DNA from: Bacteroidota bacterium
GTDB lineage: Bacteria; Bacteroidota; Bacteroidia; Bacteroidales; FEN-979
DNA: 64,000 nucleotides
Reading direction: 5' to 3'
NCBI GenBank assembly: GCA_043810345.1
Contig: JBDROF010000006.1
Coordinates: forward strand, 6,603 to 70,602
In this document: positions 6,296 to 38,465 of the stretch, one piece after another
How positions within the stretch are numbered: position 1 is the stretch's first letter
Layout of the letters: every line of letters begins with the position of its first letter
The notes under the pieces: model-generated
What the model was told of the DNA's origin: nothing
Databases searched by the model: none
Seen by the model: only the letters and a program-made list of their open reading frames with translations
Translations under genes and position numbers: made by a program

Positions 6296-7406
6296 GCATA
6301 TATTTATCGATCATCTGATAGAGGTCAGCTTTCCGGATCGGTTTGGTCAGCAGGTCATTGCATCCCTCGGTGATGGCTGCCTCCCGGTCAGCGGGCATGG
6401 CATAGGCGGTTTGCGCAAGAATGGGGAGTTGGGGGTTGGCTTCCCGGATCAGCTGGGTCGCTTCGAATCCGTCCATCACCGGCATCTTCAGGTCCATCAG
6501 CACCAGGTCAATGTGTGGATTTTCGGTGTACAGCTCAACAGCCTCCTGGCCATTTCGTGCCCAAAGTATAGAGAGCTCCATGGCAGATACTAAGATATCC
6601 AGCAATTCAAAATTCGACTCTTCATCTTCTGCTACCAATACTGTTTTGCCCGGGTATTTCATCATTCCTGCAGGTTTGGCTGGTGGTTCAGCTTGTTCGA
6701 CAGGTTTCTTCACTTCCATGGGGATGGTAAAATAAAAAGTTGATCCCAGCCCCACTTCCGATTCCACCCAGATGGTGCCCCCTAACAGCTCTACCAGTTT
6801 TCTGGCAATCGATAATCCGATACCGGTGCCGCCGTGGGTGCGGGTATGCGATTCATCGGCCTGGCGGAACAGGTCAAAGATAATTTGCTGCATATTTTGC
6901 GGTATTCCTATCCCGGTATCCCTGACGAAAAATTTCAAAAAGGTTATATCGTCCTTTACCTCCTGTTGAACCCCATATTCAATCGACCCCTCTTCCGTAA
7001 ATTTTAACGCATTCCTTACCAGGTTCATCAGAACCTGTTTCAGTTTTTCACAGTCAGTGAAGATCAACGGATCCGGATCCTTTTCCAGAGGCGTAAACAA
7101 CATGGTTATATCCGGTTTTTGGATTTTTATCTGTTCTTTTTTGATCAACCTGTCAATCTCCTCCAGAATCGCATTCAGGGAATGATTCTCTTTGTTTAAC
7201 TCCACCTTGCCGCTTTCAATGACTGAGATATTTAAAATATCTTCGATGATTCCCAGTAAATGGTACCCCCCTTTGTGAATGTGTTCTACAAATTCCAGAA
7301 TATCTTCCATAGAAGTTTCCCTGTCAATGAGCTGTGAAAAGCCAATTACAGCATTCAACGGGGTACGCAATTCATGCGACATGGTGGCCAGGAAAGCAGA
7401 TTTCAA
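6273..7406 (-). CDS. hybrid histidine kinase module (HisKA-HATPase-REC); downstream part of a gene interrupted by an in-frame TAA
   Basis: H-box SHELRTPLNAV, then DTGIGIP, GTGIGLS, and a C-terminal receiver (VLVAEDEESN...DLVLMDLKMP). Confidence 0.8.
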   Translation of the reverse strand: MKSAFLATMSHELRTPLNAVIGFSQLIDRETSMEDILEFVEHIHKGGYHLLGIIEDILNISVIESGKVELNKENHSLNAILEEIDRLIKKEQIKIQKPDITMLFTPLEKDPDPLIFTDCEKLKQVLMNLVRNALKFTEEGSIEYGVQQEVKDDITFLKFFVRDTGIGIPQNMQQIIFDLFRQADESHTRTHGGTGIGLSIARKLVELLGGTIWVESEVGLGSTFYFTIPMEVKKPVEQAEPPAKPAGMMKYPGKTVLVAEDEESNFELLDILVSAMELSILWARNGQEAVELYTENPHIDLVLMDLKMPVMDGFEATQLIREANPQLPILAQTAYAMPADREAAITEGCNDLLTKPIRKADLYQMIDKYMHETITEN

Positions 7407-12562: not shown

Positions 12563-13015
12563 TCAGGTATTTTTAGCTTCCAGATTATCCAGATCCGCCA
12601 AATCCTGCAACCTGCCGGTTGCTTTTTTATTTTTTTTCAGGTTTTCCAGATCGATGAAATTAATTATGAGCCCATCCACTTCAACTACCAACCGGCTTTG
12701 ATAACATGTTGTAAAATCAACTCCATCACATGACAGAACAAGATCAATTCTATTCGGAGGGTAGCCAATTTGAATAAATTCATCAGTTTTTAAAAAATCC
12801 TCCTTTTTTAATCCTATCCCGTCCATACCGAATGCTGAAAGCGCTTTCATTATCTGGTCAGCATTTTCATCGGAAGAAAGCAACCATACGTCCAAATCCT
12901 TAGTATATCTAGGATAGCCATGCAATCCAACGGCATAACCACCTACAATCAGGTACTGGACATCATTTGTATTTAAGGATCCGATAAACTCTCTGAAATC
13001 TTTGTTCAGCACCAT
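12563..13015 (-). CDS. nucleotidyltransferase-fold protein (MNT/AbiEii-like), function unknown
   Basis: 150 aa with YLIVGGYAVGLHGYPRYTKDLDVWL, which resembles the GG/S...DxD minimal nucleotidyltransferase core. Visibly AT-richer locus. Confidence 0.5.
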   Translation of the reverse strand: MVLNKDFREFIGSLNTNDVQYLIVGGYAVGLHGYPRYTKDLDVWLLSSDENADQIMKALSAFGMDGIGLKKEDFLKTDEFIQIGYPPNRIDLVLSCDGVDFTTCYQSRLVVEVDGLIINFIDLENLKKNKKATGRLQDLADLDNLEAKNT

Positions 13016-13492
13016 ATTTCCATAAATTATATTCTTGTCTTATCTCTTCCAAAACGATAAGTCTACTCACCAATGGCTGTGACTGCCAAAATAAAAAATC
13101 ATTTCCTTGTTCAGAGATTTTACCTCTATGAACTACCGTTTTATCAATCATAGCTTCAGTCTGGGATTAATTTGTATGTCAACGTTACCACATCCATCAT
13201 GATGTTTTTCCTTCCGCTAAAGTAACATTTTTTTCAATACTTTTCAAGGTTCCACTTGCTAAAACCTTACAGACATCGTTCTTTTCCAGACATACCCCAA
13301 CTTATTCAACTCGATTTTTCTATTGATCGGGTGTACCAGTAAAAGGTAATACGTCAAGCTCAATTTTTTTTTACCGCAGAGGCAGCAGAGGAAACACAGA
13401 GGTCCTTCGTCCCACGTCATTTTGTCAGCCTGCCCTGCTTGGCACCCTCTTTGTCAATCCCACGGCAACGAATAACCAAAAACTGAACAACT

Positions 13493-15463
13493 ATGCAAAC
13501 AGGAAAGATCAACGTCCAAACGGAGAATATTTTCCCTATCATCAAGAAATTCCTCTACTCGGAACATGAGATCTTCCTCCGGGAGCTGATCTCCAATGCG
13601 GTGGATGCCACTCAGAAACTAAAGACCCTGGCCTCCCTAGGAAAATACAAGGGGAAGCTCGGTGATCTGACCATCCAGGTGAAGGTCAACAAGAAGAAGA
13701 AAACCCTTTCGGTCACCGACCGGGGAATTGGGATGACAGCCGACGAGCTGAATAAGTACATCAACCAGATCGCTTTTTCCAGCGCCGAAGAGTTTGTCAG
13801 CCAGTTCAAGACCAAGTCGGAAGCCGAGATGAATGCCATCATCGGTCATTTCGGACTGGGCTTTTATAGCTCTTTCATGGTCTCCGATAAGGTGGAGATC
13901 AATACCAGAACATACCGGAGCGGAGAGGGTACCGAAGCGGTCATGTGGGAGTGCGATGGGAGTCCGGAATACAAGATGGACACATCAAAGAAGAAAGAGA
14001 GGGGCACCGAGGTGGTCCTTCATATGGCCGACGACTCCCTGGAGTACCTGGAAGATCACCGGGTGCTTGAGATCCTGAAGAAATATTGCCGCTTCCTGCC
14101 GGTACCGATCCAGTTTGGAACGGAGAAGGTGTATGAACCTGTGAAGGACGAAGGACGAGGGACGAAGGACGAAGGACGAGGGACGAAGGACGAAGAGGTC
14201 ATTGCGAGCGAAGCGAAGCAAACCGATGGAAAAGAGCCCAAGACGAAAGAGGTAGAAAAACCCAGGATCATCAATGATACCAATCCGCTCTGGAAGCAGA
14301 AGCCGTCGGAACTTAAGGACGAAGATTATAAGAACTTTTACCGCAAACTCTATCCCTACAGCTTTGAGGAGCCGCTTTTCCATATCCACCTCAACGTGGA
14401 TTTTCCCTTCAACCTCACCGGGATCCTCTATTTTCCCAAGGTAAAGCGGACACTGGAGATCCAGAAAGACAAAATCCAGCTCTATTGCAACCAGGTGTTT
14501 GTGACCGACTCGGTGGAGGGAATTGTTCCCGACTTCCTGACGTTGTTACATGGCGTTCTCGACTCACCGGACATCCCGCTGAATGTATCCCGCAGCTTCC
14601 TGCAGAGTGATCCCAATGTGAAAAAGATCTCCAACCATATCATGAAGAAGGTGGCCGACAAGCTGGAAGAGCTATTCAAGGAGGACCGGAAGAACTTTGA
14701 AAAGAAATGGGACGACATCAAGGTCTTCATCGAATATGGCATCATCTCCGAAGCCAACTTCTACGACCGGGCAAAAAAGTTTTGCCTGCTGAAGAATACC
14801 GAAGGGAAATACTTCACCTTCGAAGAATATGAAAAGCACATTGCTCCTGCCCAGAAGGACAAACAGGGAACCCTGATCTACCTTTACTCCACCAATCCGG
14901 AAGAGCAGTACAGCTACATCCAGGCGGTCAAAGAACGCGGCTACGATGTGTTGTTGCTCGACGGCGTGATCGATTCCCATTTCATCAACACCCTGGAACA
15001 GAAGTTTGAAAAATCGCACTTTACCCGGGTGGATGCCGATACCATTGAGAAGCTGATCAAAAAGGAGGATGCCCAGCCATCCAAACTCAACGAGGATCAG
15101 CAAAAATCGCTGAAAGAGCTGATGGAGAAACAGATCGATTCAAAGAAATACACCATCACCTTTGAAAGCCTGAGTGAAAAGGAGGCCCCGTTCATGCTCA
15201 CCCAGCCGGAATTCATGCGCCGGATGAAAGATATGTCGGCCCTGGGTGGGGGGATGGGGTACATGGGCGAACTCCCCGATCACTTTAACCTCGCGGTCAA
15301 CTCCAACAACCCGGTCATCGGCAAACTGCTGCTGGAACCGGACGGAGGCAAACAGGCAGCCACCATCAAACAGCTCTTCGACCTCGCCCTCCTGGCCCAG
15401 GGTCTGCTGAAAGGAAAGGAGTTGGCGGAGTTTATCAAGCGCAGTACGGAGCTGGTGAAATGA
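13493..15463 (+). CDS. htpG: molecular chaperone HtpG (Hsp90), with repeat-derived linker insertion
   Basis: LRELISNAVDA, GIGMT, IGHFGLGFYS and the C-terminal dimerisation region identify it. Residues KDEGRGTKDEGRGTKDEEVIASEAKQ are encoded by a tandem heptamer array. Confidence 0.95.
   Translation: MQTGKINVQTENIFPIIKKFLYSEHEIFLRELISNAVDATQKLKTLASLGKYKGKLGDLTIQVKVNKKKKTLSVTDRGIGMTADELNKYINQIAFSSAEEFVSQFKTKSEAEMNAIIGHFGLGFYSSFMVSDKVEINTRTYRSGEGTEAVMWECDGSPEYKMDTSKKKERGTEVVLHMADDSLEYLEDHRVLEILKKYCRFLPVPIQFGTEKVYEPVKDEGRGTKDEGRGTKDEEVIASEAKQTDGKEPKTKEVEKPRIINDTNPLWKQKPSELKDEDYKNFYRKLYPYSFEEPLFHIHLNVDFPFNLTGILYFPKVKRTLEIQKDKIQLYCNQVFVTDSVEGIVPDFLTLLHGVLDSPDIPLNVSRSFLQSDPNVKKISNHIMKKVADKLEELFKEDRKNFEKKWDDIKVFIEYGIISEANFYDRAKKFCLLKNTEGKYFTFEEYEKHIAPAQKDKQGTLIYLYSTNPEEQYSYIQAVKERGYDVLLLDGVIDSHFINTLEQKFEKSHFTRVDADTIEKLIKKEDAQPSKLNEDQQKSLKELMEKQIDSKKYTITFESLSEKEAPFMLTQPEFMRRMKDMSALGGGMGYMGELPDHFNLAVNSNNPVIGKLLLEPDGGKQAATIKQLFDLALLAQGLLKGKELAEFIKRSTELVK
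14144..14224. repeat. (GAAGGAC/GAGGGAC)x8 heptamer array plus GTCATTGCGAGCGAAGCGAAGCAA module, inside htpG
   Basis: Read directly. Both are in frame and encode KDEGRGTKDEGRGTKDEEVIASEAKQ. Confidence 0.9.
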
Positions 15464-15547
15464 CGTAAGACGTAAGACGTGAGACGTGAGACGTGAGACG
15501 TGAGACGTGAGACGTGAGACGTGAGACGTGAGACGTGAGACGTGAGA
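15464..15547. repeat. (CGT[A/G]AGA)x12 heptamer array
   Basis: Read directly. It starts at the base after the htpG TGA and ends 2 nt before the stop of the four-helix-bundle gene. Confidence 0.95.
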
Positions 15548-15549
15548 TG

Positions 15550-15939
15550 TTAGACGGACCGGGTTCTACAGAAGAGTTCAGCCCGCTGTTCCATAGTTAT
15601 TAACTGAGCCATGATGTGATCATATTTCTCTCTTAATTGATTATACTCTTCGTCTTTGCAGTATTCGCATGAGAATATAAACTCCAGCCAGGTTTGTGTT
15701 TCAGCAGCTTCCGTTTGGCAATCGGTTACCTTATTAATAAACATCGCGATGTACCTTCGTTTGTGCCAGCTTTCGGCCAGGTTGCTGCAAACAGACCGAG
15801 ATGCTCGTCGTACCTGATCAGTTAAAGAGTATCGTTCCTCCTTTGGAAACTTCTTCGATAATTCAAAGATCTCCATGGCGGCCTGAAATGCAAGTTTATA
15901 TACATTCAGCTCCCGCACATTTTTTGCATGAGTTTTCAT
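15550..15939 (-). CDS. four-helix-bundle protein (23S rRNA intervening-sequence protein family)
   Basis: 129 aa with YKLAFQAAMEIFELSKKFPKEERYSLTDQVRRASRSVCSNLAE...ETQTWL, typical of the TIGR02436-type family as I recall it. Confidence 0.8.
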   Translation of the reverse strand: MKTHAKNVRELNVYKLAFQAAMEIFELSKKFPKEERYSLTDQVRRASRSVCSNLAESWHKRRYIAMFINKVTDCQTEAAETQTWLEFIFSCEYCKDEEYNQLREKYDHIMAQLITMEQRAELFCRTRSV

Positions 15940-16012
15940 TTTTCTGTTTTAAGTTGTTGCCTCCATTAATCCGAAAAAAGTAAAAAGGTTATACATCCTG
16001 AAAAAAAAAGTT

Positions 16013-16042
16013 CGTCTCACGTCTTACGTCTCACGTCTCACG
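16013..16042. repeat. (CGTCT[C/T]A)x4 heptamer array, inverted relative to 15464-15547
   Basis: Read directly. It is the reverse complement of the GTGAGAC family. Confidence 0.95.
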
Positions 16043-16091
16043 AATTTTATATTTGTTACCATTGTATGTAGCACAAAAAATTGTATCTTTG

Positions 16092-16207
16092 TGTACATCC
16101 AGTCCGCATGCTCGTTTCATAAAATGTAAAGTTTTAGATTATTGCGCTAATTTAATCAATTGTGCTTCGAGTACGTAAGGCGCTTGAGCAAGGGACTGGA
16201 TTTTTAT
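16092..16207 (+). ncRNA. candidate structured small RNA (unidentified class)
   Basis: A TAtcTTTG -7 box (16084-16091) lies immediately upstream. A long-range closing helix pairs ATCCAGTCC (16097-16105) with GGACTGGAT (16193-16201), and GCTCG (16110-16114) with TGAGC (16185-16189). A TTTTT run follows at 16201-16205. lemA has its own TAcaTTTG box at 16238-16245. Confidence 0.25.
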
Positions 16208-16237
16208 TAGTCTGTGTGTCAATAGCAGATTTTCATG

Positions 16238-16245
16238 TACATTTG
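16238..16245 (+). promoter_or_regulatory. Bacteroidota-type -7 promoter box (lemA)
   Basis: TACATTTG, 25 nt before the ATG at 16270. Confidence 0.45.
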
Positions 16246-16269
16246 ATAAAAATTTAAACCACCACGCAT

Positions 16270-16866
16270 ATGAAACTCTCCAAAGGCTGGATCATCCTCA
16301 TTGTGGTGATCGCTATCGTTGTCATCCTGGTGGGCTGGGCTACCGGGATTTATAACAAACTCGTCACACAGGACGAAAATGTCGGGAAAGCCTGGGCCAA
16401 CGTAGAAAACGTTTACCAGCGGCGGGCCGACCTGATCCCCAATCTGGTGGCTACCGTTAAAGGTGTGGCTGATTTTGAAAAGTCGACTCTCACCGACGTG
16501 ATTGAAGCGCGTGCCAAAGCGACTTCGGTGACCATTGACCCGAAAAACCTGAATGCTGCATCCCTGCAACAGTTCCAGGCCGCCCAGGACGGTCTCAGCT
16601 CTGCCCTCTCCCGGTTGATGGTGGTGGTGGAAAGATATCCTGAACTAAAAGCTACGCAGAACTTTATGGAGTTGCAGGCCCAACTCGAGGGAACCGAGAA
16701 CCGGATCGCCGTGGAACGGATGAAATTCAACGAAGCGGCCCAGGAGTATAATACGTATATCCGAAGATTCCCGGCTGCCATCTTTGCCGGCATGTTCGGA
16801 TTTGAGAAAAAGGCTTACTTCGAAGCCCAGGAAGGCTCAGAGGTAGCGCCAAAGGTAGAATTCTAG
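16270..16866 (+). CDS. lemA: LemA family protein
   Basis: N-terminal TM helix, then YNKLV...VENVYQRRADLIPNLV...RYPELKA...ENRIAVERMKFNEA. Confidence 0.9.
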   Translation: MKLSKGWIILIVVIAIVVILVGWATGIYNKLVTQDENVGKAWANVENVYQRRADLIPNLVATVKGVADFEKSTLTDVIEARAKATSVTIDPKNLNAASLQQFQAAQDGLSSALSRLMVVVERYPELKATQNFMELQAQLEGTENRIAVERMKFNEAAQEYNTYIRRFPAAIFAGMFGFEKKAYFEAQEGSEVAPKVEF

Positions 16867-16876
16867 ACTGAATCCA

Positions 16877-16904
16877 CGTCTTACGTCTTACGTCTCACGT
16901 CTTA
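16877..16904. repeat. (CGTCT[T/C]A)x4 heptamer array
   Basis: Read directly, between lemA and the first TPM gene. Confidence 0.95.
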
Positions 16905-16913
16905 CATCAAAAT

Positions 16914-17428: not shown

Positions 17429-18214
17429 ATGAGCAATTACAAAATTATTATACTCACCCTCCTCCTCTGTGATGGGATACTGGCGGTTTCACAGGACATT
17501 CCCCTCCGTCCGGAGCCCCCGCGCCTGGTCAATGACCTGGCCGGGATCCTGACACCGGACCAAATTCAACAGCTGGAATACAAACTGGTCAACTTCAGCG
17601 ACTCCACCTCCACCCAGATCGCAGTGGTTACTGTAAAATCCCTTAACGGCTACGACAAAGCCGATTTTGCCTTCCGGATCGGGGAGCAATGGGGGGTGGG
17701 TCAGAAAGGAAAAAACAACGGCATTGTCGTGTTGGTTAAGCCAAAATACGGGGAGGAGCGTGGAGAAGCATACATTGCTATCGGTTATGGCCTCGAAGGG
17801 GTGATCCCCGACGCCATCGGGATACGTATCGTGGAGTATGAGATGATTCCGAACTTCAAGGAGGGCAACTATTTCGGGGGGCTTGATGCCGCCGCCACCA
17901 CCCTGATGGAGCTGGCCAGCGGCGAATTCACGGCTGATCAGTACGTGAATAAGACACAACGAAACCCCTATGCGATCTTTATCCCCATTCTGGTTTTGCT
18001 GCTGATCTTTTTCCTTATCCGCTCCAGTCGTGCACGCTCCCATTCGGTGGGCAAGAGCATTCCTTTCTGGACTGCTTTCTGGTTACTGGGGAGTATGGGT
18101 GGACACAGCGGCAACTGGAAGAATTTCTCCTCCGGCGGTGGCTCTTTCGGAGGCGGAGGAGGGGGATTCGGCGGAGGTAGCTTTGGCGGAGGCGGCGCCG
18201 GGGGGAGCTGGTGA
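17429..18214 (+). CDS. TPM domain-containing membrane protein (YgcG-like)
   Basis: Signal peptide, a TPM domain (LVNDLAGILTPDQIQQLEYKL...TQIAVVTV), a TM helix and a Gly-rich tail. Confidence 0.8.
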   Translation: MSNYKIIILTLLLCDGILAVSQDIPLRPEPPRLVNDLAGILTPDQIQQLEYKLVNFSDSTSTQIAVVTVKSLNGYDKADFAFRIGEQWGVGQKGKNNGIVVLVKPKYGEERGEAYIAIGYGLEGVIPDAIGIRIVEYEMIPNFKEGNYFGGLDAAATTLMELASGEFTADQYVNKTQRNPYAIFIPILVLLLIFFLIRSSRARSHSVGKSIPFWTAFWLLGSMGGHSGNWKNFSSGGGSFGGGGGGFGGGSFGGGGAGGSW

Positions 18215-18245
18215 GACGTAAGACGTGAGACGTGAGACGTGAGAC
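18211..18245. repeat. (GT[G/A]AGAC)x5 heptamer array
   Basis: Read directly. The TGA stop of the second TPM gene lies in the first unit. Confidence 0.95.
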
Positions 18246-18274
18246 GAGGATTATTGAATTTTTAATTCCGAACT

Positions 18275-35779: not shown

Positions 35780-38465
35780 TCCTCGCTTTCGCGTCGGCTT
35801 TTTTCTTTCGTTCGTTCTCGACCACGTTTGACGGCGCGTTGCTGACAAACCGTTCGTTGCACAGCTTCTTCTCTACCGAGGCCAGAAATCCCCGGGTATA
35901 GGCCAGCTCCTCCTGCAGCTTGCGAAGCTCCTCTTCGCGATCCACCTGTGCGGAGAGAGGAATGTAGAATTCAGTGGTCCGCACCACAAACGAAACCGTG
36001 CCGGCCTGCTTCTCATCCACATAAGCCAGTTCGTCGATCCCGCAGAGCTTCATCACCACCTCATCAAAGGTGACATCCACCGGTTCGGAGTGGTTCTTTT
36101 TGATCATCATCCGGATCTTCTCCTTCTGGGCGATGTTTTTCTCTTTCCTGACCGTCCGGATAGCGGTGACAACCTCCTTTGCAAATTCGAATGATTTAAG
36201 TAATCCGGGATCCGGTAAATACCCCTCCCCCAGCCCCTCCCCAACAAGGGAGGGAGATAAGCCCCCTTCAGGGGATTTGGGGGTACAATCCGGGATCGGC
36301 GCTATCATTATCGAGGCTCCCTGTTCCCTTTCAGCCAGCCGCTGCCAGATCTCTTCGGTAATAAAAGGGAGGAAAGGATGAAGCACCCGCAGGAGTTCAT
36401 CAAAAAAACCGACCGTTGCCTGGAAGGTCATGGAATCGATGGGCTGCCGGAAACCAGGTTTGATCATCTCCAGGTACCACGAACAGAAATCATCCCAGAA
36501 GAGCTTATAGATTGCCATCAGGACTTCTGACAACCGGTAGGCCACAAACAACTCTTCGATCTCCTTCAACGATTGGGCAAACTGACTCTCAAACCAGGCT
36601 GCGGAAACCTGACATGCCTGTGTTTGCCCCTGAGATGCATCCACCTCCCACCCCTTTACCAACCGGAATGCGTTCCATAACTTATTGCAGAAGTTCCTTC
36701 CCTGTTCAATCAATCCTTCATCAAAGAGCAGATCGTTGCCTGCCGGGGAACATAAAAGCATCCCCATCCTGACTGCATCGGCTCCGTGCTGATCAATCAG
36801 CCGAAGGGGTTCAGGCGAATTTCCCATCGACTTGGACATCTTTCGCCCCGTTTTATCCCGCACAATACCCGTAAAATAGACGTTGTGAAAAGGGATCTCG
36901 TTCCGGTATTCCAGTCCGGCCATGATCATCCGGGCCACCCAGAAAAAGATGATCTCGGGAGCGGTAACCAGGTCATGGGTCGGGTAGTAGTAATTGATAT
37001 CCGGGTTATCCGGCTTCCTGATGCCATCAAACACCGAGATCGGCCACAACCAGCTGGAGAACCAGGTGTCCATGACATCAGGATCCTGGGTAAGATCGTG
37101 AATCGTGAGACGTGAGACGTGAGACGTGATTGCGGACTGCGGACTGTGGACTGCAGACTTGGCTTTTTCAAAGGCCTCTTCTTTGCTCTTCGCCACGATC
37201 ACCGTCCCATCGGGGAGGTACCAGGCCGGGATCCGCTGTCCCCACCAGAGCTGGCGGGAGATGCACCAATCCTGGACGTGTTCCATCCAGTGACGGTACA
37301 TGTTCTTGTATTTGGAAGGGTGGAAACGAACCGTATCGTTCTCAACCACCTCCAATGCCGGGCCTGCCAGCTCTTTCATCCGGAGGAACCACTGCACGGA
37401 GATCCTCGGTTCGATCACTTCATCGGTGCGTTCGGAGTAGCCAATCTTATTTGCGTAATCTTCAATTTTTACAATGTGCCCGGCGGCATCAAGGTCGGTC
37501 ACGATCTTTTTCCGCACGGCAAACCGCTCCTCACCAATGTAAAGTTGGGCAGCTTCACTCATGGTGCCATCGGGGTTGAAGGTATCCACCACCTCCAGGT
37601 TGTGTTTGAGTCCCAGGTTGTAATCGTTGATATCATGGGCCGGCGTGACTTTCAGTGCGCCAGTTCCAAACGCTATATCTACATAGTCATCAAAGATGAC
37701 CGGCACCGACCGGTTGATCAGCGGAATGAGAATACGTTTGCCTTTCAGATGGGCATACTTGTCATCATCCGGGTGGACGCAAATGGCTGTGTCGCCCAGG
37801 ATCGTTTCGGGCCGGGTGGTAGCAATCGTCACATGCTCATCAACCGTATCCTCTATCTTGTACCGGAGGTAATATAACTTCGATTGCACCTCTTTGTAGA
37901 TTACCTCCTCATCGGAAACAACTGTCAGCGCCAAGGGGTCCCAGTTCACCATACGGGCTCCACGATAGATTAATCCCTTGTTATACAGATCGATAAATAC
38001 ATCGATAACCGAATCGTACCTGGCTTCATCCATGGTAAAACAGGTCCGATCCCAGTCGCACGAAGCTCCCAGCTTCTTCAACTGTTCCAGGATGATCCCC
38101 CCATGTTTCTCTTTCCACGTCCAGGCATGCTCCAAAAACTGCTCCCGGTTAAGTTCCGATTTATCGATCCCCTCCTCTTTGAGTTTCGCCACTACCTTGG
38201 CCTCTGTGGCAATGGATGCATGATCGGTGCCGGGAACCCAGCAGGCATTTTTGCCGCTCATCCGGGCTTTCCTGACCAGGATATCCTGGATCGTATTGTT
38301 GAGCATGTGCCCCATGTGGAGGACACCGGTTACATTCGGAGGGGGAATTACAATGCAGTAAGGTTTGCGGTTGTCGGGTTCAGAATGAAAATATCCCTGT
38401 TTCATCCAGTAGTCGTACCATTTGCTCTCAACTAATGCAGGGTTATATCTTGAAGGAATCTCCAT
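35727..38465 (-). CDS. valS: valine--tRNA ligase, with two repeat-derived in-frame insertions
   Basis: [13 protein letters not shown] (HIGH), KMSKSMGN (KMSKS), the editing domain and a C-terminal coiled coil. Insertions are at about 37097-37159 and 36211-36296. Confidence 0.95.
36211..36296. repeat. two GC-tract hairpin modules inserted in frame in valS
   Basis: Encodes ...[27 protein letters not shown]... Matches the intergenic copies at 8967-8987 and 17388-17415. Confidence 0.8.
37097..37159. repeat. 9 heptamer units (5x CGTGA[G/A/T][A/T] plus 4x G[C/T][G/A]GACT) in frame in valS
   Basis: Read directly. 63 bp = 21 codons, encoding [20 protein letters not shown]. Confidence 0.9.

Follow-up and report, generated by a model that had tools for sequence, protein, structure and literature searches.

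A four-helix-bundle gene framed by inverted heptamer arrays between htpG and lemA of an uncultured Bacteroidales bacterium: probable member of a family of small insertion cassettes

Introduction

Between htpG and lemA on contig JBDROF010000006.1 of an uncultured Bacteroidales bacterium (assembly GCA_043810345.1) lies a small antisense gene that is framed by two tandem arrays of a seven-nucleotide unit, one the inverse of the other. Its product belongs to PF05635, a family that is among the commonest uncharacterised small proteins of Bacteroidota, and the only described setting of PF05635 proteins is the intervening sequence (IVS) of rRNA, the origin of which has been unclear since 1990. What, then, is such a gene, with such arrays, doing at the junction of two protein-coding genes? 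The original prediction, made from the sequence of the locus, took it for an inserted, possibly mobile or RNA-processed module. The analysis given here started from a window of 64,000 nt (positions 6,603 to 70,602 of the forward strand of the contig), to which coordinates refer unless a contig is named. The source genome, G000, is a 2.96-Mb metagenome-assembled genome (MAG) that is 97% complete, and was compared within a set of 11 genomes of its genus (G000 to G010, with C-numbers denoting contigs). In what follows the gene is called the cargo, the arrays the arms, and the whole the cassette. The results indicate that the htpG-lemA cassette probably belongs to a family of small insertion cassettes, each of which would consist of one PF05635 gene, with or without its own promoter-like motif, between two inverted short tandem-repeat arrays with units of mostly 7 nt but also 8-9 nt.

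Inverted arrays accompany PF05635 genes

The cargo matched PF05635 (23S_rRNA_IVP) with an E-value of 4.8e-31 (107.6 bits, cut-off 33.8) over profile positions 1-105 of 106, and TIGR02436 ('four helix bundle protein') with an E-value of 7.8e-28 (96.9 bits, cut-off 24), which bears out the four-helix-bundle fold predicted for this 129-aa open reading frame (ORF). The closest solved structures are 2GSC (Xanthomonas XCC0516) and 2RLD. The flanking arrays, originally described as 12 x CGT[A/G]AGA and 4 x CGTCT[C/T]A, are the GACGTGA and CGTCTCA arrays of Table 1 in another register. Their units are reverse complements of one another, and the duplex of up to about 28 bp that had been proposed for them corresponds to a best ungapped inverted match of 30 nt with one mismatch.

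For a wider comparison, the best inverted repeat flanking each gene was scored, and genes with an arm score of at least 15 were counted as armed. G000 has 17 PF05635 matches, of which 16 could be assessed and 14 are armed, so that the other family members in the genome, which the original prediction had proposed as a check, also carry inverted arrays. Across the 11 genomes, 74 of 103 assessable PF05635 genes are armed, compared to 1 of 600 random 315-bp windows of G000. PF05635 is present in 63 of 81 sampled Bacteroidota genomes, often in 5-15 copies each, and in an even sample of Bacteroidota outside the genus, represented by the best PF05635 gene per genome, 18 of 29 were armed, nearly always with period 7. 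In G000, almost all of the genes with sequence on both sides have their inverted arrays within about 100 bp, and the unit is different for each cassette (e.g., GCAGGAG/CCTCCTG, TAGCGAAA/ATTTCGCT, TTAAATGG/TTAACCAT and TAATTGA/TCAATTA). Arm periods in the genus are 7 (46 cases), 8 (25) and 9 (8).

Short tandem arrays are common throughout G000. Perfect arrays of at least three copies number 179 at period 7 and 76 at period 8, but only 2 at period 5 and 7 at period 6, while Tandem Repeats Finder returned about 730 rows of period 7, and there are 1435 merged arrays of period 7-10. As the genome is full of arrays of period 7-9, two arrays around a gene are unremarkable in themselves; it is their orientation and pairing that stand out. 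When arrays with the same unit are paired at a distance of 300-600 bp, 19 pairs turn out inverted and 2 direct, and a PF05635 gene lies inside nearly every one of these inverted pairs; at distances above 1 kb the two classes are equal. The pairing of inverted arrays at the gene is far beyond chance.

A second cargo class was seen in G000 at C21:7648-8108, where a PD-(D/E)XK nuclease-fold gene (PF13366, 'GxxExxY') lies between inverted arrays of 8-9-nt units. A DNA search with an 11.5-kb region of C21 was dominated by array matches and was used only in part. A 69-aa 'cargo' at C21:5636-6204 was rejected, since it belongs to a 171-aa gene that contains an in-frame array.

Turnover of the htpG-lemA junction

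The gene order htpG-lemA-TPM is kept across the family. Outside the genus, nearly all genomes with htpG-lemA synteny have a gap of 11-258 bp and no cassette, in agreement with an inserted module. In one distant relative (L096), a PD-(D/E)XK gene of the second cargo class noted above ('PDDEXK_3') occupies the gap between inverted CACATAG-type arrays.

Within the genus, the junction exists in several states. A common cargo type (type A) is found in G000 and G005 with arms GACGTGA/TCACGTC, in G002 with GACGAGG/CCTCGTC, and in G009 with GAGGTGA/TCACCTC; the ORF is truncated at its 5' end in G005 and G009, with the arms retained. In G004 and G007 the cargo belongs to a different PF05635 subfamily and is flanked by AAACAAN/NTTGTTT arrays, nested beside an older promoter-like motif and right arm that have been kept, while G008 carries a third PF05635 type between CGGATGC/GCATCCG arrays. 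G003 (L007/L028) has an insertion sequence (IS) element with a DDE_Tnp_1_4 transposase, and of the cassette only the old right arm (ACGTCTC x4) and T-run are left. G010 has no cargo, the site reading TGA CGTAAGA CG TCTTACG CCTCAC TTTTTTT. All relatives with a gene at this junction also have arrays there; a gene without repeats, which the original prediction had named as a refuting case, was found in none.

The units of the type A arms (GACGTGA, GACGAGG and GAGGTGA) differ at 3 of 7 positions, and the opposite arm is always changed to match. This is compensatory change of whole arrays, by which complementarity is kept while the unit changes. A tree of lemA and the TPM genes pairs G010 closely with the filled G009 as its sister (support 100/100), so that the G010 palindrome is more likely the scar of a loss than the original state. 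An earlier reading suggested by the G010 site, in which the cassette sat in the loop of a pre-existing htpG terminator, was dropped as the preferred one for the same reason. A cassette of this type probably entered the htpG-lemA junction in an ancestor within the genus, with repeated turnover of the junction since.

Arms and cargo at unrelated sites

An operon on contig C46 of G000 holds three cassettes. Between copies 1 and 2, identity is 88.6% over the 490 bp that reach from one arm to the other, with unrelated flanks; they have a common repeat unit and also a common outer inverted repeat (GTTACTATT/AATAGTAAC). All three are absent from G010 and two from G005, with flanks that are 88-93% identical. 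The corresponding G010 junctions are tight, with 0-9 nt left over, and about 26 nt are left at one G005 junction. The wider region (C46:11500-19500, L101), a molybdopterin-type operon, is 88-93% identical to G005 and G010 at the DNA level, compared to 77-86% for other regions, which suggests that it was recently exchanged between species; yet it has the three cassettes in G000 alone.

In G007, a trio of paralogues with 62-79% protein identity has the arms AGTTGGC, AGTTTGC and AGTTCCC, and in one pair the DNA homology extends from arm to arm (74% over 538 nt). More generally, among cassette pairs without similarity in their flanks, arms are shared by 9 of 23 pairs with cargos of at least 60% identity, but by 10 of 3118 others (Fisher's exact test, 9e-16, a value that overstates the case since the pairs are not independent). 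The htpG-junction cargo of G002 is a further example: it is 62% identical to that of G000 at the same junction, but 79-82% identical to cargos at G008_C150 and G006_C88, and its GACGAGG arms are also those of the G008_C150 cassette. Related cargos at unrelated sites share arms, which indicates that arms and gene travel together.

Cassettes at the same site may be much more diverged than their flanks, or much less. At htpG-lemA, G000 and G002 have flanks of 89-92% and cassettes of 67% identity. Between G009 and G010, one site (C193/C24) has flanks of 94-96% and a cassette of 73% with different arms, and another (C16/C2) has flanks of 91-95% and a cassette of 67%. Conversely, the G000_C37/G002_C99 cassettes are 99.5% identical within flanks of 86-90%, and the second cassette type (type B) at htpG in G004 and G007 is 91% identical within flanks of 82-84%. 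Cassette divergence is decoupled from flank divergence in both directions, and the comparison shows the gene and its arms passing together through inheritance, copying to new junctions, replacement and loss. The suggestion in the original prediction that the module could be mobile is strengthened, on comparative grounds, by the shared arms at unrelated sites, the replacement of cargo at one junction, and the filled and empty sites of sister genomes.

Neither an enzyme, nor a target-site duplication, nor defined ends were found for the cassettes. No direct duplication is present at the four filled/empty junctions compared. No transposase is encoded in the cassette, and one acting in trans was not searched for systematically. 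Mobility based on reverse transcription was considered and rejected, as no reverse transcriptase (PF00078) was found in the 97%-complete genome.

Empty sites and remnants

At sites that are filled in relatives, G000 displays what can be arranged as a decay series. One site is cleanly empty (C64:4882-4892), and another, on C104, has a palindrome of one unit facing one unit (AGGTT followed by GAACCT). Solo arms are found at C55:18708-18745 and C54:3317-3344, and gene-less hairpins with full arms at C124:24907-24953 and C116:26229-26414. The C116 hairpin consists of both arms and a 16-nt interior piece of a G010 cassette, with its orientation flipped. It shows that gene-less hairpins arise from cassettes by internal deletion, that the interior can invert between the arms, and that at least some of the many arrays in the genome are relics of cassettes.

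The encoded protein and its expression

The dN/dS ratio (nonsynonymous to synonymous substitutions) of armed cargos is 0.04-0.17, and the protein is under purifying selection. The cargos of one pair, G009_C232 and G010_C6 (L171, L172), have a dS of 0.90, which is six times the value (0.15) for the unarmed PF05635 gene between these sister genomes, reflecting either older alleles or faster mutation within cassettes. That unarmed gene encodes 141 aa (C18:6664-7089 in G000), lies in an operon of the form serC-serA-like-four-helix-bundle-DUF1015, and occupies the same site in 11 of 11 genomes, with 72-95% identity and a divergence like that of its flanks. The family therefore does not need arms, and the C18 gene could be a version of the cargo that has been domesticated or belongs to the host.

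The motif upstream of the htpG-lemA cargo is shared with 8 other cassettes. Its general form is a T-run followed by TATAACCTTTTG-N11-13-(C/G)GATTAATG, about 20-35 nt before the ATG (15964-15993 on the minus strand of the window, for example), and in G000 it precedes at least 23 different genes. These are mostly not in cassettes, and the motif was for this reason rejected as a cassette-specific site; it probably serves a single regulon as promoter or leader, and departs from the usual -33/-7 consensus of Bacteroidota. Cassettes that lack the motif ('tight' cassettes, comprising the three on C46 and those on C55, C21:12891, C102 and C37) are all oriented in the same direction as their upstream gene, whereas motif-bearing cassettes occur in any orientation, a pattern that fits selection for expression of the cargo.

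Layout of the locus

The features of the htpG-lemA junction are listed in Table 1. The left array, originally placed from the nucleotide after the htpG stop, begins at the end of htpG, with the stop codon TGA (15461-15463) overlapping the first unit; from 15461 it reads aaaTGA CGTAAGA CGTAAGA (CGTGAGA)x10. Two GACGTAA units come first and are followed by GACGTGA, with degeneration inward across the end of the cargo gene, the stop codon of which (15550-15552) is within the degenerate inner part of the array. On the right side, 16012-16042 reads TCGTCTCA CGTCTTA CGTCTCA CGTCTCA CG. Directly after it, TATATTTG is a putative match to TAnnTTTG, the -7 promoter box of Bacteroidota; relatives have TATCTTTG/A at the equivalent position before lemA. 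Two TPM-domain genes come after lemA.

Table 1. Features of the htpG-lemA junction (positions in the 64,000-nt window)
Feature	Position	Strand	Basis or remarks
htpG (Hsp90 family), left host gene	13493-15463	+	PF00183, E 8.5e-62
Left arm, 13.6 x GACGTGA	15462-15556		Tandem Repeats Finder, 95% matches, score 162
Cargo, 129-aa four-helix-bundle ORF, antisense to htpG	15550-15939	-	PF05635, TIGR02436
Promoter-like/leader motif 5' of cargo	15964-16009	-	T-run, then TATAACCTTTTT-N12-GGATTAATGG, ~25 nt before ATG
Right arm, 4.3 x CGTCTCA (CGTCTCA/CGTCTTA)	16013-16042		Tandem Repeats Finder, 91%, score 53
TATATTTG, directly 3' of right arm	16048-16055	+	Fits TAnnTTTG; read from sequence
lemA, right host gene	16270-16866	+	PF04011, E 9.6e-61

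In RNA folds of 15455-16060 the arm stem is closed in the minimum-energy structure of both strands (-175.2 and -171.0 kcal/mol; z-scores -4.9 and -4.8). A search of 15300-16400 against Rfam gave no match, and a scan for consensus promoters and terminators gave nothing relevant, the model used being that of sigma-70, which is ill-suited to Bacteroidota. The original prediction is supported and what it states as fact holds, with one correction to its 'ORF in a stem-loop' transcript: the stem appears in both folds, but the promoter-like motif is situated inside the right arm, and the cargo is antisense to htpG, so that the cargo's own mRNA would carry only one arm, at its 3' end. The arms of this copy would pair only in read-through transcripts, from the htpG or the lemA side, or in DNA.

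Several other repeats were observed nearby. Arrays of the ACGTCTC/ACGTCTT family occur at 16876-16905, after lemA, and at 18211-18246, after the second TPM gene; these are mutually inverted around the 1.3-kb TPM gene pair, and a further copy lies within valS (37104-37129). Between the right arm and lemA, G000 alone has about 170 extra bases (relatives have about 45-60 nt), and within these is a 9-bp inverted repeat, ATCCAGTCC / GGACTGGAT, at 16097-16105 and 16193-16201 with about 87 nt between, which could be another small insert or relic. Inside htpG (14143-14195), an in-frame array of the heptamer GAAGGAC, with a super-period of 21 nt, encodes KDEGRGT repeats of the Hsp90 linker, and the same heptamer family encodes the KDEGRGT repeat of an unrelated 171-aa lysine-rich protein on contig C21 (L102 2889-3404). 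Just upstream of htpG (12563-13151, minus strand), a 150-aa DUF6036 nucleotidyltransferase-like gene overlaps a 62-aa ORF, a layout that resembles a toxin-antitoxin pair.

Explanations of the cassette

Several points weigh against the view that the locus belongs to a family of insertion cassettes. The evidence is all comparative, movement was not observed directly, and related genomes are not independent samples. Some assignments to a 'different site' depend on flanks near contig ends, and because the genus backbone is a polytomy, gains cannot be told from losses at several sites. A single unit-like copy of the arm sequence is often present in empty sites, which fits loss scars, entry guided by microhomology, or arms derived from local sequence. 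The lack of an enzyme, a target-site duplication and defined ends has been mentioned, as have the vertically inherited, unarmed C18 gene and the single arm in the cargo mRNA of the htpG-lemA copy. Lastly, arm duplex energies range from -26 to -117 kcal/mol and favour the cargo-sense RNA in 6 cassettes and the antisense RNA in 9, so that there is no strand bias and wobble asymmetry does not indicate a role at the RNA level. Even with these points, an insertion cassette family remains the probable explanation, with good comparative evidence for turnover and for the joint movement of arms and cargo.

A stronger form of this explanation, held only tentatively, is that the cassettes are a distinct class of mobile element without a recognisable transposase, the moving unit being the small gene plus its repeat-built hairpin arms. 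Its points of entry would be gene junctions, perhaps where a hairpin already exists or where a short stretch matches its own repeat unit. Its interior can flip, the element can be exchanged for another cassette, and its decay would leave solo heptamer arrays and hairpins without a gene. Binding of the hairpin would be the task of the four-helix-bundle protein that the element encodes. On the cassette-family reading in general, the long arms would allow folding into a hairpin or cruciform at the DNA level, and movement would rely on recombination or repair by the host at the repeat arms, possibly aided by the protein. A transcript running through both arms would form a duplex of about 30 bp, which the host RNase III (a gene is encoded at C50:19717-20091) may be expected to cut by analogy with the Coxiella IVS, and such cutting would make the insert tolerable inside operons. 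Complementarity of the arms could be kept by selection for pairing, by template switching from arm to arm, or by both.

A different explanation is that the cassette is a resident, vertically inherited regulatory RNA element, in which the arms act as an RNase III site or as a hairpin resembling a terminator, fixing where the htpG mRNA ends at its 3' side and controlling expression of the antisense gene. The stem found in the folds of both strands would suit this, as would the T-run after the right arm in relatives (a canonical hairpin plus T7 in G010), and the arms co-vary as a selected stem would. The type A cargos of the junction are also mutually best matches among the G000 paralogues (62-71% identity). 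It is nonetheless unlikely, as it leaves unexplained the three unrelated cargo types with different arms at one junction, the paralogues with shared arms at unrelated sites, and cassettes that are far more or less diverged than their flanks. The G002 cargo and arms at this junction have nearer counterparts elsewhere in the genus than in G000, and the duplex energies are without strand bias.

It could also be that bare genes insert and the arms are built at each site, by local slippage on one side and an inverted copy made through template switching on the other, so that the gene alone moves. Some sites have the appearance of raw material for this: CTGAAACC is found before the ATG in G002 and G004, compared to (CTGAAAC)n arms in G008; AATTCAG in G008 compared to (AATTAAG)n in G000; and ATAACCCT in G005 compared to TTAACCAT arms in G000, with the inverted copy on the far side. 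Arrays also end exactly at the flanking genes. Unit-like copies can equally be loss scars or integration microhomology, however, and the empty sites of C46 copies 1 and 2 are without unit-like sequence. Paralogous cassettes at unrelated junctions share their arms, and the C46 pair shares its outer inverted repeat as well, all of which makes construction on site improbable.

Heptamer arrays of a similar kind are known from cyanobacteria, where STRR sequences are short tandemly repeated heptamers, and the arms might be ordinary genome-wide microsatellites of this STRR/LSSR type that flank the gene by accident. The abundance of arrays in G000 is in keeping with this, as are the ACGTCTC-family arrays after lemA and the TPM pair and the way in which arrays abut gene ends genome-wide. 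Such an accident is very improbable given the excess of inverted over direct pairs at 300-600 bp, almost all of them around a PF05635 gene, the contrast between armed genes and random windows, and the fact that each cassette has its own unit and yet both of its arms match. As an explanation of the pairing it is refuted, although many solo arrays may have no relation to cassettes. That the gene is the Avd accessory protein of a diversity-generating retroelement (DGR), with the repeats as part of that system, can be dismissed, as its weak matches to bAvd (PF22296, E 6.6e-4) and DivGenRetAVD (NF033474, E 9.2e-4) are far below the curated cut-offs (20.6 vs 40 bits and 19.5 vs 80 bits), and the genome has neither PF00078 nor a template/variable repeat pair.

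Comparison with known systems

The preferred reading, a family of small insertion cassettes, can be set beside several described systems. Avd proteins share the four-helix-bundle fold family and act on nucleic acid together with a reverse transcriptase, but G000 lacks the reverse transcriptase and the template and variable repeats, and the cargo scores below the Avd cut-offs. Integron cassettes have a single attC hairpin at one end and depend on an IntI integrase with attI, whereas here there are arms on both sides and the sites are dispersed. MITEs (miniature inverted-repeat transposable elements) and REPINs (doublets of repetitive extragenic palindromes) resemble the cassettes in having terminal inverted repeats, intergenic positions, many copies, and presence or absence that varies between close relatives. 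Against this, the cassettes have no terminal sequence common to the copies, each lineage having its own unit, neither a target-site duplication nor a cognate transposase (e.g., RAYT) was identified for them, and they carry a conserved protein gene that is under purifying selection. The combination of shared terminal inverted repeats, target-site duplication and transposase that marks IS elements and MITEs was not found in the cassette.

The arms themselves are tandem units of 7 nt, or 8-9 nt, that are dispersed and mostly intergenic, as in STRR/LSSR-type repeats. Tandem heptamers at gene ends have been described as TAACTGA repeats in Beggiatoaceae (PMC4679880), GGGNATC repeats in Xanthomonas and Nostoc (PMC4692102) and heptanucleotide elements in Geobacter (PMC2700814). 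In the parts of these accounts considered here they are likewise dispersed tandem 7-nt repeats, intergenic and at gene ends, with varying copy number, and are described without a link to a gene family. The arrays of the present genus differ in forming inverted pairs around a PF05635 or PF13366 gene, and its gene-less arrays at orthologous sites look like the remains of cassettes.

ORF-bearing IVSs of 23S rRNA are found in Leptospira and Xanthomonas as well as in Coxiella burnetii. The latter has a 428-nt insert in helix 45 with a terminal stem of 28 bp, in which tandem GACAGAT heptamers, variable in number between strains, come before the S23p ORF; RNase III cuts in the stem, and an old proposal holds that the IVS is a former mobile element (Warrier et al. 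2016, PMC4990558). The htpG-lemA cassette is alike in its PF05635 family, in the small ORF in the loop of a long inverted-repeat stem (28 bp in Coxiella, about 30 bp here), and in the tandem heptamers that adjoin the ORF. It differs in its position between protein-coding htpG and lemA rather than in a 23S rRNA helix (9, 25 or 45), and the G000 assembly has no 23S rRNA gene. With 13.6 and 4.3 units, both of its arms are visibly multi-copy arrays; this copy runs antisense to the host gene and comes with a promoter-like motif of its own, and the cassettes are present in high copy (17 per genome) with turnover at gene junctions. Excision by RNase III has been demonstrated for Coxiella and is a prediction for the cassette.

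The turnover of the cassettes gives a testable model for the origin of rRNA IVSs and of part of the dispersed heptamer repeats, and if they do form a mobile class of their own, this would explain the origin of ORF-bearing 23S IVSs together with part of the heptamers of Bacteroidota and cyanobacteria. They also show how an insert can sit within operons without visible harm, and within the genus the same junctions occur naturally in filled, replaced, decayed and empty form. Full-text literature searches found no description of a gene-plus-arms cassette outside rRNA. The closest description found in print is the 23S IVS of Coxiella, and the cassette is best filed as an IVS-type element in a new setting.

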